NCBI GenBank assembly: GCA_964427275.1
Contig: CAYRSR010000002.1
Span: forward strand, 1,956 to 65,955
Length of the DNA stretch: 64,000 nucleotides
Reading direction: 5' to 3'
From: an uncultured Candidatus Saccharibacteria bacterium
Lineage (GTDB): Bacteria > Patescibacteriota > Minisyncoccia > UBA6257 > CAYRSR01
The position numbers were made by a program, and so were the translations under genes. Below are positions 494 through 39,579 of the stretch, piece after piece (position 1 is the stretch's first letter; each line of letters opens with the position of its first letter). Below the pieces are notes generated by a model that did no database searches, was not told the DNA's origin, and was given only the letters and a program-made list of their open reading frames with translations.

Positions 494-692
494 CATAATA
501 AATTTAAAATATAAATATCAAAATGTAAAATGACAATTAAAAATTCAAAATTAACAAATTCTAAAAATGTAAAATGTAAAAATCAAAAATCAAAATACTA
601 TAATCAATTTTCAATTTTCAAATTGTTAATTTGTTTGAAAATTAGCTCGCCCACTCGCAATACTTAGGTCTATATTGATGAGCAGATTATAG
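494..692. repeat. AT-rich modular intergenic repeat element, copy A, between divergent tRNA genes
   Basis: Shares the blocks AAATTTAAAATNTAAATATCAAAATG, AAAATGTAAAATGACAATT and AATCAATTTTCAATTTTCA...TTTGTTTGAAAATT with copies at 14425-14644, 57747-57878 and 58764-58904. Confidence 0.6.
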
Positions 693-2040: not shown

Positions 2041-4445
2041 ATTACCAGATTAATAAGCTTATCTGGAATATAAATTATTTTCTTAATCTTTTTACCTTGA
2101 ATATATCTTTTTATTTTTTCAGAATTTAAAGCTATTTCTTTTACTTCTGATTCAGATAAACCACCTATTACTTCCAATTTGTCTCTCAACTTACCATTTA
2201 CTTGAATAATCAGAGTAATTTTTTCTGCTTTAATTAATTCAGGATTGTATTTAGGCCAGCTTTGAGTAAATATGGATTTTTTATTTCCTAGCCTTTGCCA
2301 TAATTCTTCAGCTATATGAGGAGTAAATGGAGCAATTAACTTTATCAAGCTCTCATAAGTAGACTTTGATATATAAGGCTGTTTTTCTATTTCATTTACC
2401 AATACCATTAAAGTTGAAACGGCAGTATTAAATCTAAAATCTTTAATATGTTCAGTAACCATTTTAATACTTTGATGTAAAAGTTTTTGAATTTGACTGG
2501 ATTCAGGCTTTAATTCTTTAATTTTAGATTGTAATTTCCAAATTCGATTTAAAAATCTGTAGCAACCAACTACACTTCGATCTGACCACTCAGTAGCTTG
2601 TTCAGCAGGACCCATAAACAATTCGTATAATCTTAGTGTATCCGCTCCATATTTTTTGATTAATTCATCTGGCACAACTACATTTCCCTTAGATTTGGAC
2701 ATTTTTGCTCCATGTCGATAAACTGTTCCCTGATTGAATAACTTAGAAAATGGTTCGTCAAAGTCAATAAGTTTCTTATCAAATAAGAATTTAGTAAGAA
2801 ACCTTGCATACAACAGGTGCATTACTGCATGTTCTGCTCCACCAATATACAAATCAACCGGCAGCCATTTTTTAATTTTTGATTTCGAAGCAAATTGCTT
2901 TGAATTTTTTGAATCAATATATCTAAGAAAGTACCAGGAAGAACAAACAAAGGTGTCCATTGTATCAGTTTCACGAAAAGCTTTTCCTCCACACTTAGGA
3001 CACTTTACTTTTACAAACTTCTCACTTTTAGCCAGTGGTGACTTTCCTCCTCCAGCTGGTTTAAAGTCCTTAATTCTGGGCAGAATTACTGGCAATTCCG
3101 ATTCGGGAACTGGAACCCAACCACATTTAGAACAGTGTATCATTGGTATTGGAGCACCCCAGTATCTCTGCCTGGAAATTAACCAATCCCTAAGTTTATA
3201 GTAAACTTCTTTCTTTCCTAGATTGTTTTTTTGCAAATACTGAGCGATTTTTGCTCTAGCTTGTTTGGAAGTTAATCCGGAAAACTTTCCTGAATTTATT
3301 AATATTCCATCCTCAACATAGGCTTCATCTGGAAAGTTAGATTTTCCAGATTTTGGTCTAATAACTTCAATAATTTTTAAGTTATGTTTCCTGGCAAAAT
3401 CAAAATCTCTTTGGTCGTGAGCAGGAACTGCCATAATTGCACCGGTTCCATATTCTCCAAGTACATAGTCAGCCACATAAACCGGCACTTGCTTCTGATT
3501 AACTGGATTTATTGCTAATATTCCTTTTAGTTCAATTCCAGTTTTTGACTTATCTTGAGAAGTTCTTTCAATTTCAGTTTTCTGTTTAGCTTGTCTAATA
3601 TATCTTTTAACCGAGTTAAAGTTTGAAATTCTTGGCTTAAGTGTTTCAATTATAGGATGTTCCGGAGCTAAAACGATATAAGTACAACCAAATAAAGTAT
3701 CAGCTCTGGTGGTAAATACATCAACTGAAAGTTTAGAATTCACAATTTGGAACCGAACAGTAACTCCGGAGGACTTACCAATCCAGTTTCGCTGCATTAA
3801 TTTTATATTTTCGGGCCAATCAATTTTTTCCAAATCTTTCAATAGTCTTTCAGCATATTTAGTAATCTTAAAAAACCATTGCTCAAGGTCTTTTTGTTTA
3901 ACCAGACTACCACATCTTTCACACCTGCCATTAATTACTTGTTCTCTAGCCAAAACAGTTTTACATTTTGGACAATAATTTACAGCTGATTTTTCCCGAT
4001 AAGCTAATCCAGCTTTGTACAATTGTAAGAACATCCATTGAGTCCATTTGTAATAATCTGGAGTTGAGGTATTAATTTCTCTACTCCAATCATATCCTAA
4101 TCCGGAGCTAATCATTTGTTTTTTAATTCGATTAATTGACTTTTTTGTAGTTATTCTTGGATGAATTCCGGTTTTAATAGCAAAGTTCTCGGCTGGTAAT
4201 CCAAAAGCATCCCAGCCCATTGGATGAAGAACATTATAACCTTGCATCAATTTCTGTTTGGCTATCAGGTCAGAAATAGTGTAACCTTTAAGATGTCCAA
4301 CGTGAAGTCCGTAAGCAGAGGGATAAGGAAACATGTCCAAGCAATAAAACTTTGGTTTCTTCGATCTATCTGAAGCTCTAAAAATCTTAAGTTCTTCCCA
4401 ATTTTTTTGCCACTTTTTCTCAATTTTTTGAAAAGGATAAGACAT
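2037..4445 (-). CDS. leuS: Leucyl-tRNA synthetase
   Basis: 802 aa; HIGH motif (HVGHLKGY), KMSKS motif, CP1 editing region and zinc-finger cysteines. Confidence 0.9.
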   Translation of the reverse strand: MSYPFQKIEKKWQKNWEELKIFRASDRSKKPKFYCLDMFPYPSAYGLHVGHLKGYTISDLIAKQKLMQGYNVLHPMGWDAFGLPAENFAIKTGIHPRITTKKSINRIKKQMISSGLGYDWSREINTSTPDYYKWTQWMFLQLYKAGLAYREKSAVNYCPKCKTVLAREQVINGRCERCGSLVKQKDLEQWFFKITKYAERLLKDLEKIDWPENIKLMQRNWIGKSSGVTVRFQIVNSKLSVDVFTTRADTLFGCTYIVLAPEHPIIETLKPRISNFNSVKRYIRQAKQKTEIERTSQDKSKTGIELKGILAINPVNQKQVPVYVADYVLGEYGTGAIMAVPAHDQRDFDFARKHNLKIIEVIRPKSGKSNFPDEAYVEDGILINSGKFSGLTSKQARAKIAQYLQKNNLGKKEVYYKLRDWLISRQRYWGAPIPMIHCSKCGWVPVPESELPVILPRIKDFKPAGGGKSPLAKSEKFVKVKCPKCGGKAFRETDTMDTFVCSSWYFLRYIDSKNSKQFASKSKIKKWLPVDLYIGGAEHAVMHLLYARFLTKFLFDKKLIDFDEPFSKLFNQGTVYRHGAKMSKSKGNVVVPDELIKKYGADTLRLYELFMGPAEQATEWSDRSVVGCYRFLNRIWKLQSKIKELKPESSQIQKLLHQSIKMVTEHIKDFRFNTAVSTLMVLVNEIEKQPYISKSTYESLIKLIAPFTPHIAEELWQRLGNKKSIFTQSWPKYNPELIKAEKITLIIQVNGKLRDKLEVIGGLSESEVKEIALNSEKIKRYIQGKKIKKIIYIPDKLINLVI

Positions 4446-7439: not shown

Positions 7440-8819
7440 ATGGTCTATATTTTTGACACCTTATCTGAAAAAATTAAACCCCTTCCAAAGAAAATTAACC
7501 TATTTGTGTGTGGTCCTACAGTTTACGATTATGTTCACATTGGCCATGCCAGATTATACCTGGTATTTGACATGCTGGTCAGATATTTAAGATTTAAAAA
7601 ATTTAAAGTTTTTTATTTACAGAATATTACCGATATTGATGATAAAATAATTGACAAAGTTAAAAGTAAAAAGAATAAATTTACTAGAAAAGATATACTA
7701 AAACTAGCTCACTTTTATGAAAAAAAGTACCTTGAGGATATGCAAAAAATTAACATTAATACGGTAGATGCCTATGCCAGAGCTTCTGAGCACATTAAAG
7801 AAATAATAAGCCAGATTAAAAAATTGATTGAGCTAGGATATGCCTATCAAACTATGCGAGGAATCTATTTTGAAGTAAAGAAGTTTAAAAACTACGGAAA
7901 GTTATCCAAACAGAATTTAGATGAATTGAGACCAGGCTGGAGAATTGAACCAGACCCGCAAAAAAAAGACCCTTTGGATTTTAGTCTGTGGAAATTCTGG
8001 AAATTAGGCTGGAAATCTCCCTGGGGAATAGGCCGACCTGGCTGGCACATTGAAGATACAGCTATAGCTTATAAGTTTTTTGGACCTCAGTATGATCTAC
8101 ATGGTGGTGGAATGGATTTAAAGTTTCCTCATCATGAATCAGAAATAGCTCAAATGGAAGCTTTTTCTTCCAAAAGGCCAATGGTTAAAGTCTGGATGCA
8201 TGTTGGATTACTAAAAATAAATGGGAAAAAAATGTCCAAAAGCTTAGGAAACTATCTAACTTTAAGAGATTTTTTAAAGCCAGATGTTAAAAAAAGAGTA
8301 AATTTATTGAGATTGATGGTGGCAAGCTATCACTATCGTTCACCACTAAACTATACCGAAAAACTACTAAAACAAACCGAAAGTAAGTTTCAAAACTTAA
8401 TTGAATTTCTGGAAAAATTAAGAATGATTAAGCAGAGTCAGAAAATTCTAAAGATTTCCTACCAATTAAAATTGGCTCAAAAAAACTTTCAACAGGCTCT
8501 GGACAAGGATTTTAACACTCCTAAAGCTTTAGGAGTGTTATTTAAACTTATTTCTGAAATTCAAAGAGACCTTTGGAAGCTGAATAAGACCCAGGCAAAG
8601 CAGATTAGCAAGTTTATTCAAGAAAGGTTGAAAATTTTTGGAATTGAGTTAAACTTAACTGGAGTACCAGAGTTAATAAAAAACTTAGCTAAACAACGAG
8701 AAAAGTTTAGAAAAAACAGACAATGGAATGAAGCAGATAAATTACGAAAAAAAATAAACAAACTAGGATATCAGATAGAAGATACCCCAGCTGGACCATA
8801 CATAAAGCCAATCACTTAA
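7440..8819 (+). CDS. cysS: Cysteinyl-tRNA synthetase
   Basis: CGPTVYDYVHIGHAR (HIGH) and KMSKSLGN motifs; 459 aa. Confidence 0.9.
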   Translation: MVYIFDTLSEKIKPLPKKINLFVCGPTVYDYVHIGHARLYLVFDMLVRYLRFKKFKVFYLQNITDIDDKIIDKVKSKKNKFTRKDILKLAHFYEKKYLEDMQKININTVDAYARASEHIKEIISQIKKLIELGYAYQTMRGIYFEVKKFKNYGKLSKQNLDELRPGWRIEPDPQKKDPLDFSLWKFWKLGWKSPWGIGRPGWHIEDTAIAYKFFGPQYDLHGGGMDLKFPHHESEIAQMEAFSSKRPMVKVWMHVGLLKINGKKMSKSLGNYLTLRDFLKPDVKKRVNLLRLMVASYHYRSPLNYTEKLLKQTESKFQNLIEFLEKLRMIKQSQKILKISYQLKLAQKNFQQALDKDFNTPKALGVLFKLISEIQRDLWKLNKTQAKQISKFIQERLKIFGIELNLTGVPELIKNLAKQREKFRKNRQWNEADKLRKKINKLGYQIEDTPAGPYIKPIT

Positions 8820-10775: not shown

Positions 10776-11084
10776 TTAGGTTATGGACTTTAGTATTTCT
10801 ATTTCAGTATAAGGTTGTCGATGTCCTTTCTTTTTTCTATACCTGGTTTTAGGTTTATATTTAAACACTATCTTTTTTTCAGTTTTTCCTTGAGCTAAAA
10901 TTCTTGCTTTAATCTTTTTATCAAGATAAGGAGTTCCAATTTCAACTGTGTTGTCATTGGCAAAAAGTAAAATTTTATCTAAAACAATCTCATCTCCTAC
11001 TTTGCCATTGATCTTCTCTACCTTAATTTTATCTCCTGGCTTTAGCTTATATTGTTTTCCTTTTATTTCTGCTACAATTAACAT
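10776..11084 (-). CDS. rplU: 50S ribosomal protein L21
   Basis: MLIVAEIKGKQYKLKPGDKIKVEKI... typical bL21; 102 aa. Confidence 0.85.
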   Translation of the reverse strand: MLIVAEIKGKQYKLKPGDKIKVEKINGKVGDEIVLDKILLFANDNTVEIGTPYLDKKIKARILAQGKTEKKIVFKYKPKTRYRKKKGHRQPYTEIEILKSIT

Positions 11085-11085
11085 A

Positions 11086-11406
11086 TCAATTTAACTTTAA
11101 CACACTGGTTAAAAAAGTAAATATCAAAATTGTTTCTAGAAACGTGACACAACTCAAAAAAAATGATAATAACTTTTCTCGATGGAATAAAAAATTAGCC
11201 AGACTGAAATTTGCTAAAAAAACTAAAAAACTTAGTAAAATGAAATTTTTAAGATAACTTATATTTCTCAGATAATTTGATCCAGAATATAAGTTTTTAG
11301 GAAATACAATGTAGCTCTGGTTAGAAACCTTAGCATAGCTAACTATAAAAATTACCATTAAAGCTGAAAAACTTACTGCAAAAATAACTTTTAGAGTAAT
11401 AGGCAT
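11086..11406 (-). CDS. Hypothetical small membrane protein (ORF-track ORF trimmed to the first ATG that clears tRNA-Glu)
   Basis: Very hydrophobic 106 aa with 2-3 predicted TM segments. The longer 135 aa ORF overlaps tRNA-Glu and is not credible. Codon usage is AT-rich and could be non-coding. Confidence 0.25.
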   Translation of the reverse strand: MPITLKVIFAVSFSALMVIFIVSYAKVSNQSYIVFPKNLYSGSNYLRNISYLKNFILLSFLVFLANFSLANFLFHREKLLSFFLSCVTFLETILIFTFLTSVLKLN

Positions 11407-11543: not shown

Positions 11544-12776
11544 TTAATATTTCTTAATTTCTTCTACTACTTTTTCCAAGTGCATTGCCCTACTCCCTTT
11601 AACTAAAATTACATCTCCTGGTTGCAATTCCAGTTCTACTGGTTTTTTAGCCTGGTCGGCGTAAAGATAGGAGAATATTTTATCCTGGGGCATTCCCATT
11701 TGCTTAGCCCCAGCAGCAATGAATTTCGCTCTGGGTCCTATTGTAAACAAAACATCTACAAAGGAAGCTAAAAATCTTCCAATTTCTTGATGCACTTTAA
11801 GAGAATATCTACCTATCTCCAGCATATCTCCTAAAACTACTACCTTTCTCTTAGCTGGCAATTCTTTTAATGTATTAAGTGCATTTTTCATTGATAAGGG
11901 AGAGGCGTTATAACAATCATCAATGATTATGGTATTTTTTACTCCAACCAGTAGATTCATTCGAGATTTTGGAGGCGAATACCTTTCAGATAATGCTTCA
12001 GTAATTTCAATTAGATTTAATCCAAAGGTTAGTCCTACACAGGCAGCACATGCAGCGCTATAGGCAGCTCCTCGACCTAAAACTTTATTCAACTTAACTG
12101 GAACACAATTTCCCTGGTATTCTAGCTTAAATCTTACTCCCCAGGGAAATTCTTTATAATAATTTTCAAAGTTAGAAATCATTACCTGAGCTGACTTATT
12201 AAAACCATAAGTTATTATTTTAGCCTTTAGTCTTGATTGAATTTCTTTAGTCCAAACGTCATCAATATTTAAGACAGCAATTCCTGAACTTGAGAGAGAT
12301 TCTACTAATTTTGCTTTTTCTCTAGCTACCTCTTCCGGACCAGAATAAAATTCAACATGAACTGGAATTTCTCCAACAGCAGTTATAACTCCAATTTGAG
12401 GCTGAGCAATACTTAGTAGATAATTTAAATCTCCAGGCTTATCTGCACCGTATTCCAAGACTAAAATTTCTGGATAATCAGCCCTTAAAACTAAATTTTT
12501 AATTGAACTGAGTATAACTCTTAGCCAGAATAACCTCCCGGTTATAGCAGAATAATCGCCCAAAATAGTTAACGGAAGCCCAATTTCATTATTAAAATTT
12601 GCTGGAGAAACTCTAGTTTTTCGATACTTTCCCAGTACTGCTCCAATTGCTAGCTTAGCAGAGGTTTTACCAACACTGCCGGTTACACCAATTATTCCAG
12701 GCTGATACTTCCTTAATGTAGCTTTAGCCAAGCTTTTTAGAATAAATCTTAAAATTTTTAGTCCAATCTTTTTCAT
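11544..12776 (-). CDS. Mur ligase family enzyme, most likely UDP-MurNAc-tripeptide--D-Ala-D-Ala ligase (MurF) or MurE
   Basis: P-loop GVTGSVGKTS; Mur ligase central and C-terminal domains; position directly after ftsI in the division/cell-wall cluster; 410 aa. Confidence 0.7.
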   Translation of the reverse strand: MKKIGLKILRFILKSLAKATLRKYQPGIIGVTGSVGKTSAKLAIGAVLGKYRKTRVSPANFNNEIGLPLTILGDYSAITGRLFWLRVILSSIKNLVLRADYPEILVLEYGADKPGDLNYLLSIAQPQIGVITAVGEIPVHVEFYSGPEEVAREKAKLVESLSSSGIAVLNIDDVWTKEIQSRLKAKIITYGFNKSAQVMISNFENYYKEFPWGVRFKLEYQGNCVPVKLNKVLGRGAAYSAACAACVGLTFGLNLIEITEALSERYSPPKSRMNLLVGVKNTIIIDDCYNASPLSMKNALNTLKELPAKRKVVVLGDMLEIGRYSLKVHQEIGRFLASFVDVLFTIGPRAKFIAAGAKQMGMPQDKIFSYLYADQAKKPVELELQPGDVILVKGSRAMHLEKVVEEIKKY

Positions 12777-12778: not shown

Positions 12779-14143
12779 TTAGTCTGCTGGAAATAAATGA
12801 TAGTAACTAATTATAAATTGAGCTAGTTCCTTAAATGCTGGAACTACCGTAATTCCTGCTAAAGGTGCACCTTCTGGCTTTTCCAATTTTACCAGAATGA
12901 CAATTTCCGGTGAAGTGCCCGAGATAAATCCTACAAAAGTGTTAATTACTTCTGAGCTATATCCGCCATTTTCTAAATCTGGAACTTGAGCAGTACCAGT
13001 TTTTCCTCCTATCTTATATCCATCAATCACAGCTACACCTGCCTTTTCTACAGTACTGATTAACATCAATTTTATTTGTTCACTTACTTCTGGGCTAATA
13101 GTATTTCCAATTATCTTCTTGCCCAACTTTTTATTTAGATATGGTCGCATTAGCTTACCTCCATTAATTAAACTTGAAAAAGCATTAATAAGTTCAATCG
13201 GAGTTACTGATATTCCCTGTCCAAATGAAGCACAGGCAAAATTCAGTGGCTGATTATCCTTAAGATTTGAAAGATCTCCATGTTGTTCAAATGGAAAATC
13301 AATGCCAGTTGGCTGGTCAAAGCCAAATTTTTTTAAGTAATTGTAAAAAGTTTGATGACCAATCTTTCTTTCCAGAAGGACTGCTCCAGTATTAATTGAA
13401 TGTTCTAATACATCCTTTATAGTTATTTCTCCATAACTTTTATTGTCCCAGTTGGTAATAGTTTTAGAGCCAATGGTAACCTTGCCCGGATCAAATAGAG
13501 TGTAATCTGGAGTGAATGAGCCTGAATCCAGGCCAGCAGCTATTGTGAATGGCTTTATTACTGAACCAGGTTCATATCTTTTACATATAGCCTGGTTTAC
13601 AAATAGACTTGGATTGGCTTTATTGTATTGATTTGGATTAAAATCTGGCTTACTGGCTAATGCTAAGATTTCTCCACTATTTGGATTTTGAACAATAATG
13701 GTCCCGGCTTGGGCATTAGTTCTTTTAATCAGCTGTTCTAAAATACTTTCAGCTTGATTCTGAATGTTTATGTCGATAGTTAAATACTGGTCCTCTCCTT
13801 GTTCCAATTGTTGATTATAATATCTTTCCAAACCGTATAAGCCAGTTGGAAACTTATTCTCTTTTGTATAGCCAACATAACCAATAAGTTGAGAAGCTAA
13901 GTTTTTTAATGGACAATACCTGGGATTTCTAAAATCACCAGTTCGATTTAGAGCTACAGGAAAGCTATTATTATGGCGGTCAGTGAAAAAAAATATTCCT
14001 CTAGAATTCTTAATTGAAACGTAAGAATCTTGCTCAGCTTTAACTAAATTAGTTTTTCCAACCTGAAGATCATAAAGACGGAAAACCAAAAAAGAATAAC
14101 CAAGCCAAAACAATATTGCCAGGAATATTATTTTAGACTTCAT
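12779..14143 (-). CDS. ftsI: Penicillin-binding protein FtsI (PBP3), septal transpeptidase
   Basis: N-terminal TM anchor, SVIKP (SxxK) and GKTGTAQ (KTG) motifs; follows ftsL. Confidence 0.8.
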   Translation of the reverse strand: MKSKIIFLAILFWLGYSFLVFRLYDLQVGKTNLVKAEQDSYVSIKNSRGIFFFTDRHNNSFPVALNRTGDFRNPRYCPLKNLASQLIGYVGYTKENKFPTGLYGLERYYNQQLEQGEDQYLTIDINIQNQAESILEQLIKRTNAQAGTIIVQNPNSGEILALASKPDFNPNQYNKANPSLFVNQAICKRYEPGSVIKPFTIAAGLDSGSFTPDYTLFDPGKVTIGSKTITNWDNKSYGEITIKDVLEHSINTGAVLLERKIGHQTFYNYLKKFGFDQPTGIDFPFEQHGDLSNLKDNQPLNFACASFGQGISVTPIELINAFSSLINGGKLMRPYLNKKLGKKIIGNTISPEVSEQIKLMLISTVEKAGVAVIDGYKIGGKTGTAQVPDLENGGYSSEVINTFVGFISGTSPEIVILVKLEKPEGAPLAGITVVPAFKELAQFIISYYHLFPAD

Positions 14144-14424
14144 AAGTTGGAAGCTGAAAGATACTTTGGACTTGATTCTAGAATCAAGCCTTGCTGTTTG
14201 GCTATTTTTTCCAAGTTAGAGGGACTGGTTACCTGATATAGCTCTTTCTGAAGGCCCAAATTAATGCTTTTTAAACTAGCCAGCTCATTTTCTAGATTTT
14301 TAATCTGATAATGGAGAGAAACCAGCTGATTGTATTGGTAAATGTACAATTCACCAAGAAGTAAAAGTATACCCAGGAAAATCAACCAGTTATACTTTTT
14401 TGGTGATGATTTAATAATAGTCAT
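14140..14424 (-). CDS. ftsL: FtsL/DivIC-like cell-division protein (single TM plus coiled coil)
   Basis: 94 aa; TM helix then leucine-zipper-like coiled coil; sits between rsmH and ftsI as in canonical division/cell-wall clusters. Confidence 0.6.
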   Translation of the reverse strand: MTIIKSSPKKYNWLIFLGILLLLGELYIYQYNQLVSLHYQIKNLENELASLKSINLGLQKELYQVTSPSNLEKIAKQQGLILESSPKYLSASNL

Positions 14425-14644
14425 AATAAAAAATTTAAAATGTAAATATCAAAATGAAAAATGCTATTAATCAATTTTCAATTTTCATTGAATTTTCAAT
14501 TTTCAATTACCGAGTCCCATTATCGAGGTTGAACCTCGATAATTTCTTCCTTCTAAATTGCATTTGTTTGAAAATTGGTTTATTGATAATTGATTGAAAA
14601 TTAGAAATTGAAAATTGTAAATTGTAATTTTGATTTTTAAATTT
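14425..14644. repeat. AT-rich modular repeat element, copy B, inserted between rsmH and ftsL; long imperfect palindrome with a central perfect hairpin
   Basis: Left arm AAATTTAAAATGTAAATATCAAAATG...CAATTTTCAATTTTCA mirrors right arm TGAAAATTGTAAATTGTAATTTTGATTTTTAAATTT. Central perfect 10 bp stem ATTATCGAGG/CCTCGATAAT (14519-14543, loop TTGAA). Shares blocks with copies A, C and D. Confidence 0.6.
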
Positions 14645-15538
14645 TTAACTTACTATGGCTGCTCTTAGTTTAGCTGAGCGACTTCGAGGATTGAATTTGA
14701 TTTCTTCTGGATCAGGAACTACTGGCTTTTTGGTAATAATCTTTACCTTTTCCTCTTTAGCTAATTGTCTAAATTTATTCTTTACTATCCTATCTTCTAA
14801 AGAATTAAAAGAAATCACCACTACTCTTCCATTCGGTTTTAAAATTTCTGGCAAGTTATTAAGTACTTTCTCAAGATTCTCTAGTTCCCTATTTGCAAAG
14901 ATTCTTAAGGCTAAAAATGTTTTTGTAGCTGGATGAATTCTTCTTCTTCGATAACTTAAAGGTACTGCCAATTTTACAACTTCTGCTAGTTCTAAATTGG
15001 TCTCAATTGGTTTTATTCTTTCTCTCTCTTTTATAGCTTTAGCTATTCTTTTGGCATACCTTTCTTCTCCGTAGATTTTTAAAACCCAGGCTAGCTCCTT
15101 TTGATTCATCTTCTTGAGCAGTTCCTTTACTGGAGTATATTCAGGAGAATAAATCATCAGCAGTGGTTCAGATTTACCTGAGAAAGAAAATCCTTTTCCG
15201 CTTTGAAGCTGAATTGATGAGAATCCCAGATCTAAAAGCAATCCATCAGCCTTTCCTAGTTTTTCTTGCTTAAGAATTGTAGTTAGGTCAGCAAAATTTC
15301 CATTTCTGAAAACCAATTTTATTTGCTTATCCTTTAATACTTGAGTTAATCGCTTCTTAGCCAGATTTAAAGATTCCAAATCTAAATCAACTCCTAAAAA
15401 CTTTCCGGCATTCATTTTTTTCAGGATTACTTCTGAATGTCCTCCACTTCCAAGAGTTCCATCAATAAAAAAATCTCCAGGTTTCAAATCCAATATTTCC
15501 ACAACCTTTTTTAAAAGAACTGGAATATGATACATCAA
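14645..15538 (-). CDS. rsmH: 16S rRNA (cytosine1402-N4)-methyltransferase RsmH
   Basis: GTLGSGGHS SAM-binding motif; position downstream of mraZ; 297 aa. Confidence 0.85.
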   Translation of the reverse strand: MMYHIPVLLKKVVEILDLKPGDFFIDGTLGSGGHSEVILKKMNAGKFLGVDLDLESLNLAKKRLTQVLKDKQIKLVFRNGNFADLTTILKQEKLGKADGLLLDLGFSSIQLQSGKGFSFSGKSEPLLMIYSPEYTPVKELLKKMNQKELAWVLKIYGEERYAKRIAKAIKERERIKPIETNLELAEVVKLAVPLSYRRRRIHPATKTFLALRIFANRELENLEKVLNNLPEILKPNGRVVVISFNSLEDRIVKNKFRQLAKEEKVKIITKKPVVPDPEEIKFNPRSRSAKLRAAIVS

Positions 15539-15547: not shown

Positions 15548-15979
15548 TTATATCCCTAATTCTCCCAGTTTTTCAGCAATTTCCTTTGAAGCTGACTCAG
15601 TCTTACTCTTGTATTGCTCCCAGATATGCTGGTCCCATAACTCTATTCGGTTATACAAGCCTGCAAATACTACTTGTTTCTTAAGTCGAGCATATTTCCT
15701 GAGATATTCAGGAATTAAAATTCTTCCCTGCGAATCTATTGATATATCTACTGCCCCGGCTAACATCAGTCTGACAAAGGCTCGAGAATCTGCCTTAGCC
15801 AAAGGCAATTTAACTAATTTTTGAGCCAGGGTTTCCCATTCTTTTACTGGAAATAAAAACAAGCAACAGTCCAAGCCCCTGGTAATTACAGCCTTTTTAC
15901 CCAATATTTTTCTGAATTTGACCGGAATAGCTACTCTTCCCTTGTTATCAATATTGTATTGATATTCGCCAATAAACAT
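15548..15979 (-). CDS. mraZ: Transcriptional regulator MraZ
   Basis: MFIGEYQYNIDNKGRVAIP matches the MraZ N-terminus, and the protein has the duplicated SpoVT/AbrB-like MraZ domain. The ORF-track start at 15991 overlaps a repeat box; the conserved MF start at 15979 is preferred. Confidence 0.8.
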   Translation of the reverse strand: MFIGEYQYNIDNKGRVAIPVKFRKILGKKAVITRGLDCCLFLFPVKEWETLAQKLVKLPLAKADSRAFVRLMLAGAVDISIDSQGRILIPEYLRKYARLKKQVVFAGLYNRIELWDQHIWEQYKSKTESASKEIAEKLGELGI

Positions 15980-15983: not shown

Positions 15984-16125
15984 TTATCCACAATTTTTTA
16001 GACTTATCCACATATTTATCCACAATTCCCCACTTTGTTATAAGATTACACCACTGGTCAGGAAAAGTCAACTAAAACTGTGGATAACTTTAAAATAATT
16101 TAGTTATATTAGGTTATAAGATTGC
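15984..16125. promoter_or_regulatory. Cluster of four perfect TTATCCACA 9-mers plus a GTTATAAGATT direct repeat upstream of mraZ
   Basis: TTATCCACA on the plus strand at 15984-15992, 16004-16012 and 16016-24; TGTGGATAA (reverse complement) at 16080-16088. GTTATAAGATT appears twice (about 16038-16048 and 16112-16122). The surrounding region is AT-rich. Confidence 0.6.
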
Positions 16126-16926: not shown

Positions 16927-17442
16927 CTATTTCTTCGACCTTTGTTCCAAAATATACAATAAATTTGCCAGTGGATTTTTTAAGCTGGAAATTAAGTTAT
17001 AAATTGGGCTCCCAATTAATCCAATTAATCTGCCAAACAAGTTTTCCCGAGAGGGTGACTTTACTAGAATTTCTACTATTTCTTCTTCTTTCATTTCTTT
17101 TCCAATTAAATCATAAATTCCTAGCAACTTAAATTGATCCAAATTCAATAAATCTTTCATTTTAAGGATTACTTTCCCAATATCTCCTAGTACGAATATG
17201 ATACCTAGCTGACCAGAATAAATTTCTCTTGGGTCAATTTCAATATCTTTTTCTCTAAAACCAATCTTTAGTAACCTTTTTTTTATAATTTTCAGTGTAG
17301 CCTCTTTTTTAATATCCTTTCTTAACCTGATAAACTCCATGGCTGGAATTTTGGAAAATCCAAATAAAATCAAGCTATTAGCTTTTTCCAAAAGCTTTTT
17401 ACATTCCTCTAATTCTTTAATTTTTTGTTGTTTAGATTTCAT
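16927..17442 (-). CDS. rplJ: 50S ribosomal protein L10
   Basis: Position immediately upstream of rplL and typical uL10 N-domain; 171 aa. Confidence 0.85.
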   Translation of the reverse strand: MKSKQQKIKELEECKKLLEKANSLILFGFSKIPAMEFIRLRKDIKKEATLKIIKKRLLKIGFREKDIEIDPREIYSGQLGIIFVLGDIGKVILKMKDLLNLDQFKLLGIYDLIGKEMKEEEIVEILVKSPSRENLFGRLIGLIGSPIYNLISSLKNPLANLLYILEQRSKK

Positions 17443-17561
17443 TAAATAAAAAAATCTGCTTCCGCAGACTTATGTTTATTAGCTACCCTCGGCAGGAATT
17501 TAGGAACCTGCTGTCTGCGGATAGTCAAAAAGAATATAAACAATTTTAAATTAAATGTCAA
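17443..17561 (-). promoter_or_regulatory. Consensus sigma70-type promoter (TTGACA-17-TATATT) and structured leader upstream of rplJ
   Basis: On the minus strand, -35 TTGACA at 17561-17556, a 17 nt spacer, and -10 TATATT at 17538-17533. The ~85 nt leader has paired CCGCAGAC/GTCTGCGG segments and a CTGCGGAAGCAG hairpin followed by a T-run just before the ATG. Confidence 0.45.
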
Positions 17562-18954: not shown

Positions 18955-19018
18955 TCTTTTATTATATCACCTTTAACCCCCTTTTCAATTTCAGTTTTAA
19001 GTTTTATAATTTATTATT

Positions 19019-25626: not shown

Positions 25627-27426
25627 TTAGTCTTTTTTAAGACGATGTTGGTAATACCAGTTAAACAACTTTTTAGCTACTGGCAGGGTATTTAAGCTTC
25701 CTTCTTTAGAGTTTTCAATTAAAATTAAAATGACTATTTGAGGATTGTCTACTGGTGCATAACCAACAAAAATAGCATTGGTCTGCTGTTTTTTTCTTAC
25801 CTCTACACTTCCAGTTTTTGCTGCAACTTTGAATGGTAAATCTTGTAACATTCTGGCAGTTCCATAAGGTTTACTAACTGATTCTACCATTCCCCGCTCT
25901 ATCTCCTTGAATATGAATGAATTAATATTCAGCTGAGATAATATTTCAAAATTCTGAGCCTTGGAAATTCTAAGCTTTAGAATTTTTCCTCTATTAGCAA
26001 TAGCACTAATGTAGCTAATCAATTCTAATGGGGTAATTGAAATCTCTCCCTGGCCAATGGAAATATTGTAAGTGTTTCCTAAAGTCCATTTGGAATTTAC
26101 TTCAGGTAAGTTTCCATTCACTTCTCCGGGAATATCAATTTGAGTTGGCTTATCCAGGTTAAATTTTTTAAAATATTCAATTAATTTTTTTGCTCCTAAT
26201 CCTTTAAAATCTCGATACCCTCCACCCAGCCGGTAAAAATAAACATTACAGGACTTAGCTAGAGCTGAATACAAATTTGTTTCTTGATGAGCTTTCCAAT
26301 CTCTAAAAATTGTTGGCAAGCCACCATAGGGATTTTCTAGAACCAATTTCCCGGAACAATAAATTGATTCCTCAGAGGAAATTATTTTTTCATTCAATCC
26401 AGCTATGGCTATTAATGGCTTAATAGTAGAACCGGGGGAATAGAGTCCGGATACAGCTCGATTAAATAGAGGCTGATTTTTTTGTTTTAAAAACTTGGAA
26501 ACCTGATTTAAATCAAATGAAGGTAAACTAACCAAAGCTAAAATTTCACCGGAGTTGGGATCAACTGCAATTCCAACTGCTCTGGTTAAATTCAATTCAG
26601 CTAATCTTTGTTTCAAAGTAGAATAAAAATATTTTTGAAGTTCTAGATCAATAAAGGTAGGAAGATCTCTTCCTGAAACTGGAGCTTTAACTATTTTCTG
26701 ACCTAAAACTTTTCCTTGAGCATCTCTAAATACTAACTTTCTCCCATTCCTTCCTCTCAGGTAAGAATCATAATATTTTTCTAGTCCAGTTTTACCTACT
26801 AAATCATTTATGTCTAGGTTAGGATTTTTTTGTAGTTCATCTTGATCAGCTAAGCTTAAATATCCTAAAACATGAGAAAGAACTAGAGAATCAGAATATT
26901 TTCGATTCCATCCTAATTCGATTTGAACTCCAGGTAAATCTTTTTGTCTTAAATCTAAAGCAATAGATTTATCCAAATTATCAACCAGGCAAATTTTACT
27001 AGCAGAGTCTTTAAGTTGATTAAACTTCTGTTCAACTACAGAAATATTTAGGTTTAGACTTCTAGCTAATTCTTGAAATATTTTTAGTTTTAGTTTTGGA
27101 TCCTTGGGTAAAGAATCTGGTAGAAGATTAAGACGATAAACTGGCTGATTGCTAGCTAATATAACTCCAAATCGGTCTAAAATCTTTCCACGTTTAGCAA
27201 AGACAGTGTAAGATTGATTTATATTCTGAAGAGCAATTTTTTGATAGGTTGGATAATTGGAAAATATTATTATCAAATAAAGAATCATAGTTATGCAAAT
27301 TAAACAAAAGATTATTAAAAAAAATTTAAAGACCCTGCTACTCAGTTGAACTTCAAGTAAGTCTTCAGATTGTTTTTTATCAATTAAAATATCTTCCAGA
27401 TTAATTTCCCGTTTTGTCCGTTGCAT
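25627..27426 (-). CDS. mrdA: Penicillin-binding protein 2 (elongasome transpeptidase, MrdA-like)
   Basis: N-terminal TM; STIKP (SxxK) and KTGS motifs; adjacent to an mreB homologue; 599 aa. Confidence 0.75.
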   Translation of the reverse strand: MQRTKREINLEDILIDKKQSEDLLEVQLSSRVFKFFLIIFCLICITMILYLIIIFSNYPTYQKIALQNINQSYTVFAKRGKILDRFGVILASNQPVYRLNLLPDSLPKDPKLKLKIFQELARSLNLNISVVEQKFNQLKDSASKICLVDNLDKSIALDLRQKDLPGVQIELGWNRKYSDSLVLSHVLGYLSLADQDELQKNPNLDINDLVGKTGLEKYYDSYLRGRNGRKLVFRDAQGKVLGQKIVKAPVSGRDLPTFIDLELQKYFYSTLKQRLAELNLTRAVGIAVDPNSGEILALVSLPSFDLNQVSKFLKQKNQPLFNRAVSGLYSPGSTIKPLIAIAGLNEKIISSEESIYCSGKLVLENPYGGLPTIFRDWKAHQETNLYSALAKSCNVYFYRLGGGYRDFKGLGAKKLIEYFKKFNLDKPTQIDIPGEVNGNLPEVNSKWTLGNTYNISIGQGEISITPLELISYISAIANRGKILKLRISKAQNFEILSQLNINSFIFKEIERGMVESVSKPYGTARMLQDLPFKVAAKTGSVEVRKKQQTNAIFVGYAPVDNPQIVILILIENSKEGSLNTLPVAKKLFNWYYQHRLKKD

Positions 27427-27468
27427 GTAACGGTTTAAACTAATAAAAGATATAAGATTTGAATTTGA

Positions 27469-28509
27469 TTATATCTTGACCTGATTCTTTGGAAAAACTT
27501 CCAGGAATTTTCGATACTTTTTGAAATCTTCTAAGATTACCCCGGTCCCTCTAGATAAACATCCAATTGGGTCATCTACTCGAGATACTTTTATGGAGAG
27601 TTGTCTGGCCAAAAACTTATCTATTCCTCTTAGTAAACTACTCCCTCCGCAGATATAAATTCCATTTTTATAAATATCCCCGGCTAACTCAACTGGAGCT
27701 CTCTCAATTAATTCAGCTATACTATCGACAATAATTTTAAGGGGTTCTTCTAAAGCTATCTGAATGTGAGAACTCTTGACCACAATTTCACGAGGAAGTC
27801 CGGTATTAACATCACGACCTCTAGCAAGGGTATCTAATTTCTCCGACTCTCCTAATGCTGTACCAACTTCTATTTTAATTCTTTCGGCAGTTTTCTCTCC
27901 AATAATCAATCCTGCTTCCTTTTGAATAAAATTGATAATGTATCTATTAAACTGATTTCCAGCAACTTTCAATTTTTCTGAAATTACCACTCCTTCAGCA
28001 GACAGTAAGGCAATATTGGTAACCCCTCCTCCAATGTCTACAATCAAAATTGCCTGGGGCTGGTCAATATTCAAATGTGAACCTAAAGCAGCGGCAACTG
28101 GCTGGGAAACAAAAAATACTGTAGATGCCCCAATGCTCTGATAAAGATCTTCTATAGATTTTCTTTCTACTTCAGTTAAACCAATTGGTATGGTGGAAAC
28201 TACTAGAGTATTAAAAGACCAGGGGCAAGATTTAGCAAAAAATCTTTTCAACATCTCCTTGGCAATATCAAAATCTGAGATTACTCCATTAGATATTGGA
28301 GAAAGAGCAGTAATATGATGAGGGGTTCGGCAAAACATTTTATCAGCTGGTTTTCCCACTGCAGTAATTCGATTAGTTACATTATTAAATGCAACCATGG
28401 ATGGTTCTCTTAAGACAATTCCTTTCCGTCTCAGATAAATCAAAGTGTTACAGGTTCCTAAATCAACTCCTACACCCTTCTTAAAAATATTCACATTAAA
28501 AATACTCAT
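27469..28509 (-). CDS. Second actin-like MreB-family protein (divergent paralogue)
   Basis: GVDLGTCNT phosphate-1 motif, DIGGGVT, CGGSSLLRG; 346 aa; only distantly similar to the canonical mreB at 32081-33088. Confidence 0.7.
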   Translation of the reverse strand: MSIFNVNIFKKGVGVDLGTCNTLIYLRRKGIVLREPSMVAFNNVTNRITAVGKPADKMFCRTPHHITALSPISNGVISDFDIAKEMLKRFFAKSCPWSFNTLVVSTIPIGLTEVERKSIEDLYQSIGASTVFFVSQPVAAALGSHLNIDQPQAILIVDIGGGVTNIALLSAEGVVISEKLKVAGNQFNRYIINFIQKEAGLIIGEKTAERIKIEVGTALGESEKLDTLARGRDVNTGLPREIVVKSSHIQIALEEPLKIIVDSIAELIERAPVELAGDIYKNGIYICGGSSLLRGIDKFLARQLSIKVSRVDDPIGCLSRGTGVILEDFKKYRKFLEVFPKNQVKI

Positions 28510-29744
28510 ATTTTATTTAGTAACTGTCTTAAGCTAACTAATCTTTTTTTGGTTTGATTTCTTTTTTTGATTTCTATTTTGTTAACCGCCTTAGTTTTTG
28601 GACTTACTACCAGTCGATTTGGAATTCCAATTAGATCAGCATCGGCAAACTTCTCTCCAGCTGAAACCTTTCTATCATCACATAATACTTCAGCACTTTT
28701 CTGCTTAAGCTTAGCATATACTTTTTTTGCAAATTTTTCAACCTCCTTATCATTGGATAAAATTAGCAGATGGTACTGATAAGGACTGATTTCTTCAGGC
28801 CAGATAATTCCGGCTGAATCGTGATTTACTTCTACTACCGTAGCTAAAGTCCTTTCAATTCCTATTCCATAACAGCCCATGACTACTGGCTTAAGTTCCC
28901 CAGTTTTGGTTCTAAACCTAAGGTCTAGAGATTCTGAAAACCTGGTTCCTAATTTAAAAATATTTCCAACTTCAATAGCTCTGGTTTTTTTAATTGTTCC
29001 TTTACCGCAGCGAGGACATTTTTGTCCTTCTTTTAAACTGCTTATTTCTTTATTCTGGGAAAACTTGCAATTTTCACACCAGAAAATAGTATCTTCTCCA
29101 GAAGGACTTTCTACCATAAATTCATGAGAATATTTAGAAAAATAACCTCCGGAAGCTTCAGTAACTATTGCAGTTAACCCACATCTTTTAAATATTCTCA
29201 GATAAACTTTTTTCAATTTCTGGTAGTATTTTTCCAGGTCTGCTTGATCCTGGTGAAAACTATATAAATCCTTCATTGTAAATTCCCTCCCCCTTATTAA
29301 TCCAGACCTAGCTCTAGGTTCATCCCGAAACTTAGTTTGAATCTGATAAACTGAAATAGGTAGGTCCTGATAGGAAAGAATTATTGGCTTGGCTAATTCA
29401 GTAACTATTTCTTCATGAGTTGGCCCTAAAACTAACTTCTTGCCTGCTCTATCGACAAACTGATACATAATTTCACTCAAATCCTTAAATCGATTAGTTT
29501 GCTCCCAGATTTTTTGAGGTTGAACTGCAGGCATCAATATTTCCTGAGCTCCGATTTTATTTAGTTCTTCTCGAATGATATTTTCTATCTTCTTTTTAAC
29601 CCTTAACCCGAGAGGCAGAAAGCTATATACTCCAGCCATTAATTTACTAACAAATCCACCTTTAATTAAAAATCTAGCATTAGCTGATTTTTCTTCTTTA
29701 TAAAATTGCTTAGAAGTTTTTGAAAATAACTTAGACTGAAGCAT
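28506..29744 (-). CDS. proS: Prolyl-tRNA synthetase (minimal form, no editing insertion)
   Basis: Class II motifs (FRDE, GLIRGREFTMKD, GIGIER), an anticodon-binding domain and a C-terminal zinc-ribbon-like CxxC pair; 412 aa. Confidence 0.75.
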   Translation of the reverse strand: MLQSKLFSKTSKQFYKEEKSANARFLIKGGFVSKLMAGVYSFLPLGLRVKKKIENIIREELNKIGAQEILMPAVQPQKIWEQTNRFKDLSEIMYQFVDRAGKKLVLGPTHEEIVTELAKPIILSYQDLPISVYQIQTKFRDEPRARSGLIRGREFTMKDLYSFHQDQADLEKYYQKLKKVYLRIFKRCGLTAIVTEASGGYFSKYSHEFMVESPSGEDTIFWCENCKFSQNKEISSLKEGQKCPRCGKGTIKKTRAIEVGNIFKLGTRFSESLDLRFRTKTGELKPVVMGCYGIGIERTLATVVEVNHDSAGIIWPEEISPYQYHLLILSNDKEVEKFAKKVYAKLKQKSAEVLCDDRKVSAGEKFADADLIGIPNRLVVSPKTKAVNKIEIKKRNQTKKRLVSLRQLLNKI

Positions 29745-29763
29745 AATAAAACCCTTTTATTAA

Positions 29764-30777
29764 TTATAAAACCATTCTAATATCCTTGAAAACAAGTAAA
29801 ATGGCTAAAATTAACAAAAAGATAAATCCATAGGCATTAATTGTTGAAACAATTTTCTTAGATAAGGGACGACCCTTAATTTTTTCAATGGCAGTATAAA
29901 CTAAAAACATTCCATCCAGAGCAGGAAATGGTAGTAAATTGAAAACTGCCAAACCTACTGAAATACTAGCCATTACCTGCACAAGGTAAATTAGTCCAAT
30001 CTGACCAATTTTATAGGCAAAAAATACCATTCCTACCGGACCAACTACATCCTGAAGTAGTTCGGGCTTTACAAAAGATTGAGTAATAATTTTGTATAGT
30101 CCCTGAAGAGTAGCTCTTATAACCCAGAAAGTTCGTCTAGTAGCTACAGCAAGACTTCCCAAAAAAGATTGCTTGGGAATTCCAGCATCAAAAAAGCCAA
30201 TACCTAGCTTTCCTTCTCCAGAAGGAGGAGATACTCTAGGAACAATTGATTTGGTTAAAATATTACCATTTCGCCTTATTTTTAAAGTTATTTTCTTTCC
30301 AGCCTGTTGGTTTAAGAACTGAATCATTTGCTCACCTGTAAATGGAAAATCTAATCGCTGCTGCCCGTAGCTTAAGTTAATAATTTGGTCCTGAACTTGA
30401 AGACCGGCTTGTTCAGCTGGTGAACCGGGAAAAACCTTGTTGATTAACAAAACCGGGTCAGTTCCTATCAGGGACACCATAACAAATAACAAAAATCCTA
30501 ACATTAGATTAAAAAGTACTCCCCCAAGAAAAATAGCCGATTTATGTAAAGGAGGCTGTCTGAGCAGGTCGGTTTCAGATATTTTGTTAAACCCACCAAA
30601 CGGTATAGCATTGATGCTATATTTGGTTCCTCCAAGCTTCTTAGAAAAAATGCAGGGAGGATAACCAAGTCCAAATTCTTCAACCTTAACCCTAAAAGAT
30701 TTTGCTAAGCAAAAATGTCCGAATTCATGAACCAAAACGATTATTGAAAGAAAAATTACTGCTAATAAATAAATCAT
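29764..30777 (-). CDS. rseP: RIP site-2 metalloprotease RseP
   Basis: HEFGHF HExxH motif in TM1, PDZ domain, LDG motif; 337 aa. Confidence 0.85.
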   Translation of the reverse strand: MIYLLAVIFLSIIVLVHEFGHFCLAKSFRVKVEEFGLGYPPCIFSKKLGGTKYSINAIPFGGFNKISETDLLRQPPLHKSAIFLGGVLFNLMLGFLLFVMVSLIGTDPVLLINKVFPGSPAEQAGLQVQDQIINLSYGQQRLDFPFTGEQMIQFLNQQAGKKITLKIRRNGNILTKSIVPRVSPPSGEGKLGIGFFDAGIPKQSFLGSLAVATRRTFWVIRATLQGLYKIITQSFVKPELLQDVVGPVGMVFFAYKIGQIGLIYLVQVMASISVGLAVFNLLPFPALDGMFLVYTAIEKIKGRPLSKKIVSTINAYGFIFLLILAILLVFKDIRMVL

Positions 30778-31310
30778 CTCTGTATTTCTTCAATTTTAGA
30801 TTGAACAATTTGTTGAATCTGATTATTAATCTCTTTAGTGTGTTGGTCAATTTGTTCTTTTAACCTAAACTTTTGATCCTCGGTAAGTTCTTTATCTAGG
30901 TACTTTTGTTCAATTTGTTTATTAAAATTATCTCGTTCAGCTCGAATTAAAATTCTAGTTTGTTCAGCAATACTTTTAACCTGCTTAATTATTTGCTGTT
31001 TTCTTTCTGAAGACAGTGGAGGGAGCTTTACAAAAATTGTTTTCTCCGAAACCCGGTTAGAATAACCGCGCTTGGATAAAGCTCTGGTAATCTCTGGAAT
31101 AGCATCTTTATCCCATACTTCAATTGAAAATTCCTGGACTGAAGGCATCCGAATAGTAGCTAGTTGTTTTAAGGGAATTTGCTGTTGATAATATTCTATT
31201 TTAATGTCCCCAATTAAGCTTGAATCAATCCTACTTCCTCTAATTAAATTTAGTTTTTGTCTAAAGTTATCAACAATTTGTTTAGTTTTAGTTTTATAAT
31301 CTTCTAGCAT
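30774..31310 (-). CDS. frr: Ribosome recycling factor
   Basis: Typical RRF three-helix bundle plus beta domain; 178 aa. Confidence 0.85.
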   Translation of the reverse strand: MLEDYKTKTKQIVDNFRQKLNLIRGSRIDSSLIGDIKIEYYQQQIPLKQLATIRMPSVQEFSIEVWDKDAIPEITRALSKRGYSNRVSEKTIFVKLPPLSSERKQQIIKQVKSIAEQTRILIRAERDNFNKQIEQKYLDKELTEDQKFRLKEQIDQHTKEINNQIQQIVQSKIEEIQR

Positions 31311-31311
31311 A

Positions 31312-32052: not shown

Positions 32053-32080
32053 AAGTTTTCAGTCTAATATTTGCTATATT

Positions 32081-39061: not shown

Positions 39062-39576
39062 GTGTCAATATTTCTTGCACTTACAGTAACTTGAAGGTTA
39101 ATTTTAGCTTCTATTTGAGGAATATTTGGGACAGCTTCTAACAAAATAGTAATTCTAGGAGGAAGTCCATCTCCGGTCTCACAGCCTTTCAAGATAAAGT
39201 CTAAAAACTTAATTTGAACATTGGAAGAAGTAATTGGATAAAAATCTTCGCCAGCTTCACTCCTTTCAATAGCTTGTGAATGTAACCTATAAGTTACTGA
39301 ATTTCCATATTGATTAACAAAATCTATTCTCCCTTTTTCTGGAGAGGAAAAATTGGTTCCGGTTCTAATTTCTCTTACCATCTGCTCTAAAATTTTAGAA
39401 GCATTGTCACTAGCTGCTATTAGTGAAACTATATTTCTTTGAGTTCTCAATCCTCTGGTAAATGCTCCAGTAGCTATAGCAAAGAAAATTGTAAATAAAC
39501 CTAAGGCCACAATCATTTCTATCATAGTGAATCCTCTTTTATTTAATAATTGAAACTTAAAAATTGAAATTTTCAT
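39058..39576 (-). CDS. Minor (pseudo)pilin with prepilin-type N-terminus
   Basis: Class III signal KRG|FTMIEMIVAL; 172 aa. Confidence 0.65.
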   Translation of the reverse strand: MKISIFKFQLLNKRGFTMIEMIVALGLFTIFFAIATGAFTRGLRTQRNIVSLIAASDNASKILEQMVREIRTGTNFSSPEKGRIDFVNQYGNSVTYRLHSQAIERSEAGEDFYPITSSNVQIKFLDFILKGCETGDGLPPRITILLEAVPNIPQIEAKINLQVTVSARNIDT

Positions 39577-39579
39577 TTT

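Follow-up and report, generated by a model that had tools for sequence, protein, structure and literature searches.

Miniature inverted-repeat transposable elements (MITEs) are recognized as short sequences that lack a transposase open reading frame (ORF), occur in dispersed copies, carry terminal inverted repeats (TIRs) and a target-site duplication, can form stem-loops, show mobility and depend on a transposase acting in trans (PMC3184786). The enterobacterial repetitive intergenic consensus sequences or intergenic repeat units (ERIC/IRU) of the Enterobacteriaceae are classed with them (PMC3184786). Here we describe element A, a palindromic, A+T-rich sequence that fills the spacer between rsmH and ftsL in the division and cell wall (dcw) operon of an uncultured member of the Patescibacteria or candidate phyla radiation (CPR). 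It lies in a stretch of 64,000 nucleotides of contig CAYRSR010000002.1 (positions 1,956 to 65,955), in the following called the window, whose sequence is also present in the European Nucleotide Archive assembly ERZ27248139. Genomes of CPR/Patescibacteria are among the most streamlined. Element A is a composite member of a dispersed, AT-rich palindrome family of a Patescibacteria lineage, and we consider it likely that this family is a MITE/ERIC-like repeat carried along as a co-transcribed passenger. It is not a control element special to the dcw operon.

In their described properties, ERIC/IRU elements resemble this family. They are likewise imperfect palindromes, of ~130 bp, that lie between genes, within or beside operons and in either orientation, are apparently transcribed, form long RNA stem-loops and vary in presence between close relatives. 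However, they belong to another phylum, while the family described here has 13–20% G+C and is built from 7-nt units; moreover, no TA target duplication is detectable, and the copies take up the entire gap from stop to start in essential operons of a streamlined genome. The Correia elements of Neisseria (CREE/NEMIS) are similar in being non-autonomous, 100–160 bp long, composed of inverted repeats, often co-transcribed and equipped with promoter-like hexamers. Their insertion sites are polymorphic between close strains (PMC3184786). In contrast to the fuzzy ends and best-conserved inner stem found here, Correia elements possess crisp 26-bp TIRs, a TA duplication and a site for the integration host factor.

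Rickettsia palindromic elements (RPEs; 105–146 bp) have spread in a small reduced genome as well and may overlap the ends of coding sequences. A parallel is found here, as the last two codons and the stop of both S17 and ParA lie inside an element. While RPEs are known for in-frame insertion in ORFs and RNA genes, the copies described here are placed between genes, and the sequences are unrelated. S17 ends with AAA ATT TAA (K, I, stop) in element-homologous sequence (window 57879-57889), and ParA does so likewise and independently (contig L022, 400-410); thus the element supplies the C-terminal end of the upstream gene together with its stop codon. The hairpin repeats of sponge mitochondria also invade short intergenic regions of a very compact genome, but come from an organelle instead of a bacterium and are of unrelated origin (PMC2800124). 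In mode only, the copies resemble RNA pairings that couple cistrons and the RNase III-processed hairpins of phage T7, with the base of the stem at the stop and its end by the start; judged by the predicted folds, such a stem could be opened by a terminating ribosome or cut by a nuclease acting on double-stranded RNA. Repetitive extragenic palindromes (REP) and the bacterial interspersed mosaic elements made of them were rejected as an identity, given that REP is a G+C-rich unit of ~35 nt, compared to 132–220 nt and 13–20% G+C here.

Structure of the rsmH/ftsL spacer and its relatives in the window

The window has a G+C content of 34% (33.9%), and the minus strand carries mraZ, rsmH, a gap of 220 bp, ftsL/divIC, a penicillin-binding protein (PBP) transpeptidase and a Mur ligase (MurF) in this order (Table 1). 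In three syntenic relatives the distance between rsmH and ftsL is 3, 33, and -4 nt, so that a sequence-only reading of this DNA was right in calling the two genes normally adjacent or overlapping; the 220 bp are therefore an insertion compared to the usual state. The same reading took the spacer to be non-coding, with which ORFs, Pfam and orthologue starts agree. FtsL begins with MTI in 5/5 orthologues and with MTII in 4/5, and since MTI is invariant, the start codon of ftsL is rightly placed and the spacer does not represent an overlooked extension of the N-terminus. A missed small protein was rejected as well: FtsL begins at the annotated ATG in all orthologues, and the only ORFs of element A, one of 18 aa in sense (MQFRRKKLSRFNLDNGTR, across the central hairpin) and one of 47 aa in antisense direction, lie in an interior that is replaced in a sister genome. 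The median gap between co-directional genes in the window is ~4 nt. Thus a spacer that is filled exactly is the expected look of any tolerated insertion.

The two arms had been read as inverted copies of each other. This holds for the outer arms (14426-14500 and 14582-14656; 75 nt each), which are 73% complementary, and still more for the inner arms of 18 nt with 94%. Two corrections are required, however. The outer palindrome enters the 3' end of rsmH by ~9–12 nt, stop codon included, and the spacer is a nested composite rather than one simple palindrome. Its ends, ~20 nt after the rsmH stop and ~39 nt before the ftsL ATG, are of the family type; the latter agrees with the sister genome at 38/39 positions and has 92% identity to the beginning of element B. 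Enclosed by these ends is an oppositely polarized module, (CAATTTY)n ... (AAAATTG)n, that element B has as well (over 59 nt at 88%, together with the TTTGTTTGAAAATT block). The heptad arm at 14593-14627 pairs with 14471-14508, which contains an 18-nt tandem duplication (14473-14490 and 14491-14508), while arrays of period 7 extend over 14430-14463, 14471-14508, and 14593-14645.

The perfect central hairpin of 10 bp that had been noticed is present, with 12+12 bases round one central base, equal to a stem of 10 bp closed by the loop ttgaa. Only one other perfect short-loop hairpin of at least 10 bp exists in the 64 kb, and such a hairpin arises in ~2% of shuffles of the spacer. The second one (8513-8540, 13-bp stem, TAACACTCCTAAAGCTTTAGGAGTGTTA) is found inside the cysteinyl-tRNA synthetase gene. 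The proposed search for the central hairpin elsewhere came back empty, as CGAGGTTGAACCTCG has no other copy in the window. Judged by its distribution, the G+C-rich hairpin is a feature private to one lineage.

Self-comparison of the window revealed three further elements, B, C, and D (Table 1), and thereby bore out the earlier observation of blocks shared with a tRNA cluster and the ribosomal operon. Element B is made up of canonical arm 1 (501-565), additional heptads and the inner module of element A (598-645). Elements C and D, inverted relative to each other, are 88% identical over 139 nt, and the S17 stop codon (57881-57879) falls within C. A search for the CAATTTT heptads, proposed in the same reading, gave six hits of three tandem copies in the window against 0.08 expected, while AAATTTAAAAATCAAAAT was hit 11 times against 0.30; 16 of these 17 hits fall within the four elements. 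The family comprises imperfect palindromes of 130–220 nt that are built from degenerate 7-nt units (AAAATNN / NNATTTT), end in AAATTTAAAAATCAAAAT ... ATTTTGATTTTTAAATTT and show inverted symmetry along their full length. Tandem periods of 7, 8, and 14 were obtained for A, and of 13, 15, 20, 21, and 27 for the other elements. The 21-nt spacer between S14 and S8 resembles an element end, and on its sequence would be either an empty site or a deletion remnant.

Table 1. Coordinates in the window, and full copies of the family on other metagenome contigs
Feature	Position	Strand	Remarks
Mur ligase	11544-12776	-	
PBP transpeptidase	12779-14143	-	
ftsL/divIC	14140-14424	-	DivIC/FtsL_2; ATG at 14424-14422
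Element A (composite), whole rsmH/ftsL spacer	14425-14644	-	220 bp, 20.5% GC
Outer 3' end (transcription direction), CATTTTTCATTTTGATATTTACATTTTAAATTTTTTATT	14425-14463	-	abuts ftsL ATG
Inner heptad arm, (TCAATTT)n on + strand	14471-14508		Tandem Repeats Finder (TRF) and inverted pairs
Private core	14506-14561		~37% GC; lacking from the sister's spacer and elsewhere in the window
Perfect hairpin ATTATCGAGGTT-G-AACCTCGATAAT	14519-14543		terminator-like on + (antisense) strand only
TTTGTTTGAAAATTG block	14562-14576		15/15 common to element B 629-643
Inner heptad arm, (CAATTTY)n sense, ATTGAAA/ATTGTAA on + strand	14593-14627		TRF period 7, 5 copies
Outer 5' end (transcription direction), AAAAATTTAAAAATCAAAAT..	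14625-14644	-	identical in sister; 18-19/19 to ends of C and D
rsmH	14645-15535	-	ORF and Pfam Methyltransf_5; stop TAA at 14647-14645
mraZ	15548-15979	-	
Element B, tRNA-Arg(cct)/tRNA-Ser(tga)	495-691		self-comparison
S14/S8 spacer, TAGAAAAATGCAAAATTTTTT	56350-56370	-	21 nt; resembles element outer end
Element C, S17/L14	57747-57889	+	canonical, ~140 nt; antisense to transcription
Element D, S3/L16	58764-58904	-	canonical copy; sense orientation
Contig L004 (sister genome), rsmH/ftsL			full copy
Contig L009, dnaX/ybaB			full copy; ends ~40 nt before next ATG
Contig L010, pilB/pilT/pilC			two full copies, flanking pilT
Contig L015, gatC/gatA			full copy
Contig L022, parA/parB			full copy
Contig L023, rpmJ/rpsM			full copy

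Copies, empty junctions and turnover in other genomes

One exact-pattern scan of public metagenome contigs, with a pattern that lay in the inner arm, returned 18 loci. From other metagenome contigs full copies of ~140 nt were recovered, which are 79–94% identical (Table 1). For 12 of the 18 loci (L008, L011-L014, L016-L021, L024, L025) only the 23-mer or a short A+T-rich stretch matched, and these were discarded as chance; no family copy was found in viral contigs. Every copy is flanked by co-directional genes, seven being in sense and four in antisense orientation. With the exception of the dnaX/ybaB copy, the copies run from the upstream stop, or from just inside the ORF, to a few bases before the next ATG. 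Without an insertion, such junctions normally measure 0–30 nt.

The same junctions exist without an element. In contig L032, S3/L16 are 8 nt, S17/L14 -4 nt, and S14/S8 1 nt apart, and junctions used by the family are empty in the relatives L001, L028, L030, and L032. Within the window pilB/pilT (4 nt) and pilT/pilC (3 nt) are empty, while both are filled in contig L010. This contig has 46% G+C, and its PilT is 63% identical to that of the window (67% at the nucleotide level). Its two copies, in contrast, comprise only 19% G+C and are 79–81% identical to C and D. Consequently, the AT-richness is intrinsic to the element. On sequence grounds, the two copies point to horizontal spread or a strong sequence requirement and are at odds with drift of local spacers.

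Three spacers on these contigs deserve mention beside the full copies. In L001, a Patescibacteria metagenome-assembled genome (MAG) with 52% G+C and an rsmH/ftsL gap of 3 nt, a heptad palindrome of 92 nt and 26% G+C (2608-2699) occupies mraZ/rsmH and is styled like the inner module of A. L028, whose RsmH is 61% identical, has a 33-nt rsmH/ftsL spacer (3934-3966) with the perfect palindrome ACGGTAATTACCGT. In L022 the spacer TTTTTAAATTTTGAATTTTTATT (8143-8175) stands right before an ATG like a solitary element end; it may be what a deletion left behind, or else a seed sequence.

The most detailed comparison is with the sister genome (Joint Genome Institute contigs L004, L027, and L026), which shares 91% nucleotide identity with the window over the dcw region and 98.9% over the ribosomal operon. 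Its rsmH/ftsL spacer has 181 bp. While both ends are conserved, the interior shows only ~51% column identity to that of the window, compared to 90–97% in the flanks. It corresponds to a canonical D-type copy, 91% identical to D, without the G+C-rich hairpin. In addition, the sister contains a further copy after S14 (L027, 5147-5250), inside which the contig ends, so that only one junction is on the contig. Between genomes that are 91–99% identical, the interior was thus replaced at rsmH/ftsL, and S14/S8 differs by presence or absence. Therefore the family turns over fast, and mainly at the center of the palindrome. Contigs L007 (46 nt into element A) and L027 break within elements, which is expected for multi-copy repeats; the elements account for such breaks in these MAGs and could be used to tell strains apart.

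Two regions of the sister are recorded here as observations. The tail of L026 (10217-12162) lacks collinearity with the window and is possibly chimeric. A non-coding stretch within it, in which Rfam found no match, contains (GAAGTTA)n heptads (11048-11080), three repeats of ~26 nt of the form ATCTCYC..ATTTTTAAA (11183-11250) and, at 11280-11305, a sequence that agrees with the A-core hairpin at 23/25 positions; given the possible chimera, no conclusion was drawn. At L004 3451-3502, compared to window 18955-19018, an extra A/T-rich insertion of 52 nt is located just upstream of the tRNA-Ser(cga) promoter. In the window, a TGATATAAT box lies 7 nt upstream of this tRNA gene, and downstream of it follows a G+C-rich terminator.

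RNA folds, tolerance and rival explanations

Folding the minus-strand RNA of the spacer, a check proposed at the outset, gave -43 kcal/mol with z = -4.9, and none of 200 dinucleotide shuffles was as stable; the copies reach predicted values of -19 to -45 kcal/mol (z -2.4 to -6). In folds of seven junctions that spanned stop codon to AUG, the upstream stop was part of the outermost long-range pair, and the stem ended 3–12 nt before the AUG. At the locus studied, the last ~9–12 nt of rsmH, stop included, pair into the base of the predicted hairpin, and the ftsL start codon follows 4 nt past the last paired base. Across nine copies pairing is kept in 93% of pair cells and is lost when the register is shifted. 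The predicted helices consist of A-U pairs only and are interrupted every 5–12 bp. A Shine-Dalgarno motif is missing before ~65 of the 73 starts examined, and the leaders are A/T-rich. TATAAT-like -10 boxes were not sharply concentrated at any position ahead of the 71 starts examined; thus general leaderless transcription is not established.

Measured against the MITE features listed above, the copies have 132–220 bp without a transposase ORF and occur at four loci in the 64 kb and at least three times within 5 kb of the sister genome. The pair AAATTTAAAAATCAAAAT ... ATTTTGATTTTTAAATTT provides TIRs, the ends being less sharp than the inner stem, RNA stem-loops are predicted, and filled as well as empty states exist at S14/S8, pilB/pilT/pilC, rsmH/ftsL, S3/L16, and S17/L14. 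However, several results weigh against the reading as a mobile family. No consistent direct repeat was found as target-site duplication; the ends merge into low-complexity sequence (TAA / ATTATG). Neither a transposase nor a REP-associated tyrosine transposase nor another mobilizing gene was detected in the window or the flanks examined. Conservation is higher in the inner stem than at the ends, opposite to what a classical MITE defined by its TIRs would show; this is partly an effect of ascertainment, as the scan pattern lay in the inner arm. For these three reasons we speak of a MITE/ERIC-like family rather than of a proven MITE. A hidden Markov model of the canonical copies misses element A, whose link to the family, as far as sequence tells, is through its ends, element B and the sister locus. 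At their sites in the sister, C and D are 100 and 98% identical (0/132 and 3/141 differences), which equals the 98.9% of the flanks and is therefore uninformative on selection. Furthermore, in our own 51-pair structure four pairs show double changes, which 63 of 500 shuffles also reach, and the RNAalifold consensus amounts to -0.84 kcal/mol without any double changes. Since double changes are too few, selection on the pairing is unproven.

How might such an insertion be tolerated? We envision the family as a non-autonomous, MITE/ERIC-like repeat of selfish or near-neutral nature, and element A as probably co-transcribed with its operon. As Shine-Dalgarno sites are not used, an AU-rich leader would provide a normal context for the start codon. 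In the transcript a weak A-U hairpin of great length would form, with the upstream stop in its base and its end 3–12 nt before the AUG, so that stop and start would be no farther apart in space than at a junction without an insertion. Melting of the stem base by a terminating ribosome would expose the next start, after which termination-coupled or simple A/U-rich initiation would continue. The element would be tolerated because there is no dependence on Shine-Dalgarno sites and because the hairpin bridges stop to start; bridging and A/U-rich initiation together would let the family live in ribosomal-protein and division operons. The central G+C-rich hairpin would be a recent nested acquisition with no demonstrated role. 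By analogy to Correia and ERIC elements, some copies may be cut by nucleases specific for double-stranded RNA or may act as weak promoters.

The predicted folds also suggest a different role. As a processing or stability element, the A-U hairpin would be cut by a double-strand-specific ribonuclease such as RNase III or would block exonucleases, splitting the mRNA at rsmH/ftsL, S3/L16, and S17/L14 and setting different half-lives. Correia elements are cleaved by RNase III, and Correia and ERIC elements as well as T7 intercistronic hairpins act in processing and stability. The significant long hairpins predicted in the sense transcripts of all copies and the pairing preserved across them argue for such a role, as does the 7:4 mix of orientations, which fits a function independent of orientation; it could even coexist with a selfish origin. 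However, the helices are weak and interrupted, there is no real covariation, relatives run the same operons without any element, and the rsmH/ftsL interior is wholly different in the sister, so that we regard this role as doubtful. Another view takes the elements as domesticated intercistronic bridges in a lineage without Shine-Dalgarno sites. With stop and AUG held together by the hairpin, re-initiation or processing at its base would set the relative output of neighboring essential genes (rsmH/ftsL, S3/L16, S17/L14), and the elements would spread by targeting stop/start junctions or palindrome centers rather than by a TIR transposase; this we think unlikely. Besides, the heptad arms could provide -35/-10-like hexamers and act as internal promoters for ftsL, L14, L16, and tRNA-Ser. 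Promoter-like hexamer pairs indeed exceed shuffles in the elements (16 against 5.6 ± 2.8; 12 against 2.1 ± 1.5). Candidates are well placed before tRNA-Ser(tga), where TTGTCA-17-TATATT ends 13 nt upstream, and before L14, where TTGTCA-17-TAAATT ends 11 nt before the ATG in the same arrangement as in L022; moreover, bona fide promoters of this genome are sigma-70-like and close to gene starts. Yet the best sense-strand match in element A, TTGATA-18-TATTAT, ends at 14423 inside the ftsL ATG and therefore cannot serve the ftsL start, while the others (9/12) are expected from composition and misplaced for it. Matches are equally frequent on both strands, as follows from the heptad composition, and the L010 copies do not preserve the hexamers; the elements stand in both orientations, and relatives need no extra promoters within the S10/spc operon. 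Promoter activity as the explanation of the family consequently appears quite improbable.

The sequence-only reading further held that the element splits the dcw operon. The physical separation of mraZ-rsmH from ftsL-ftsI-mur stands, whereas a functional divider, be it promoter, insulator or terminator, is unsupported: in many unrelated operons the junctions from stop to start are occupied by copies of the family, which stand in either orientation, and the G+C-rich hairpin is absent at the same site in the sister. That this hairpin or the whole palindrome would curb read-through into ftsL-ftsI-mur, as terminator, attenuator or insulator, is very unlikely in our view. The hairpin does fit a simple terminator pattern, and perfect hairpins are rare in the window. 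However, its T-rich tail is on the antisense strand only, while the sense strand goes on with GGGACTCGG; a terminator-like scan gave one site against 1.2 expected in shuffles, and the real terminators of this genome consist of a G+C-rich stem followed by a T run. A halt before the essential ftsL-ftsI-murF, with no evident promoter downstream, would also be harmful. Elements that arose as passive low-complexity spacers, by local slippage of 7-nt units and related through composition alone, would account for the period-7 arrays, the 18-nt tandem duplication and the fuzzy ends. They would not account for the long matches to B (59 nt at 88%, 38 nt at 92%), the exact matches of 18–19 nt to the ends of C and D, canonical copies that are 79–94% identical across unrelated junctions and genomes, or the canonical copy at the same site in the sister. 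The identities across loci contradict slippage, which is still more improbable. Finally, a TIGR-Tas array (TIGR, tandem interspaced guide RNA) or another small-RNA gene was considered, as CPR frequently contain TIGR systems, whose arrays are hard to recognize (PMC12045711; bioRxiv 10.64898/2026.09.09.750476). Such arrays consist of tandem 36-nt units with spacer pairs flanked by box C/D and an adjacent Tas protein with a Nop domain (PMC12045711). No 36-nt unit was among the tandem periods, spacer pairs flanked by box C/D were not seen, and none of the window proteins scanned gave a hit to the Nop domain, the neighbors being MraZ, RsmH, FtsL, PBP, and MurF. The copies are near-identical and dispersed instead of forming arrays with variable spacers. 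An Rfam scan of the whole window at gathering scores matched none of the elements, and an E-value scan of 14300-14760 with Rfam 15 returned only Lig_thermometer (19.4 bits compared to a gathering score of 51.5, E = 2.1). The probability of this identity is close to nil.

Significance and other features of the window

We conclude that the elements form a new repeat family of MITE/ERIC-like kind, of which no earlier description from CPR was found in the open-access literature. In these genomes hairpin repeats have repeatedly colonized essential, stoichiometry-sensitive operons, namely S10/spc, dcw, parAB, gatCA, and the type IV pilus genes. Thus the family represents a natural experiment on polycistronic expression without Shine-Dalgarno sites. 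For annotation, we suggest that spacers like the one between rsmH and ftsL should not be labeled as locus-specific regulators.

The likely promoter of the dcw operon lies outside the spacer. Ahead of mraZ (15986-16071, minus strand) a sigma-70-like promoter, TTGACT-17-(TG)TAATCT, is followed by four GTGG(G/A) boxes at 16033, 16023, 16011, and 15991 (array 15986-16033). The MraZ operator consists of direct GTGG(G/A) repeats with ~10-bp spacing. By sequence, the region has the appearance of a canonical Pmra promoter combined with a MraZ operator, here in a CPR genome, while 14425-14644 contains neither GTGG nor CCAC, and hence no MraZ operator is present in the spacer.

Besides the dcw genes, the window encodes a second PBP along with two paralogues of MreB and a type IV pilus cluster that is complete, with PilM/N, PilB, PilT, PilC, prepilin peptidase, and several pilins (25627-33088 and 39058-48439), and Rfam identified an L10 leader at 17440-17538. 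In the 585-kb CPR genome to which contig L032 belongs, two small genes are located between S10 and L3, within the ribosomal operon (329-794). One gives a hit to ParE_toxin and the other has no Pfam hit, and from their sequences they may be a toxin-antitoxin pair.

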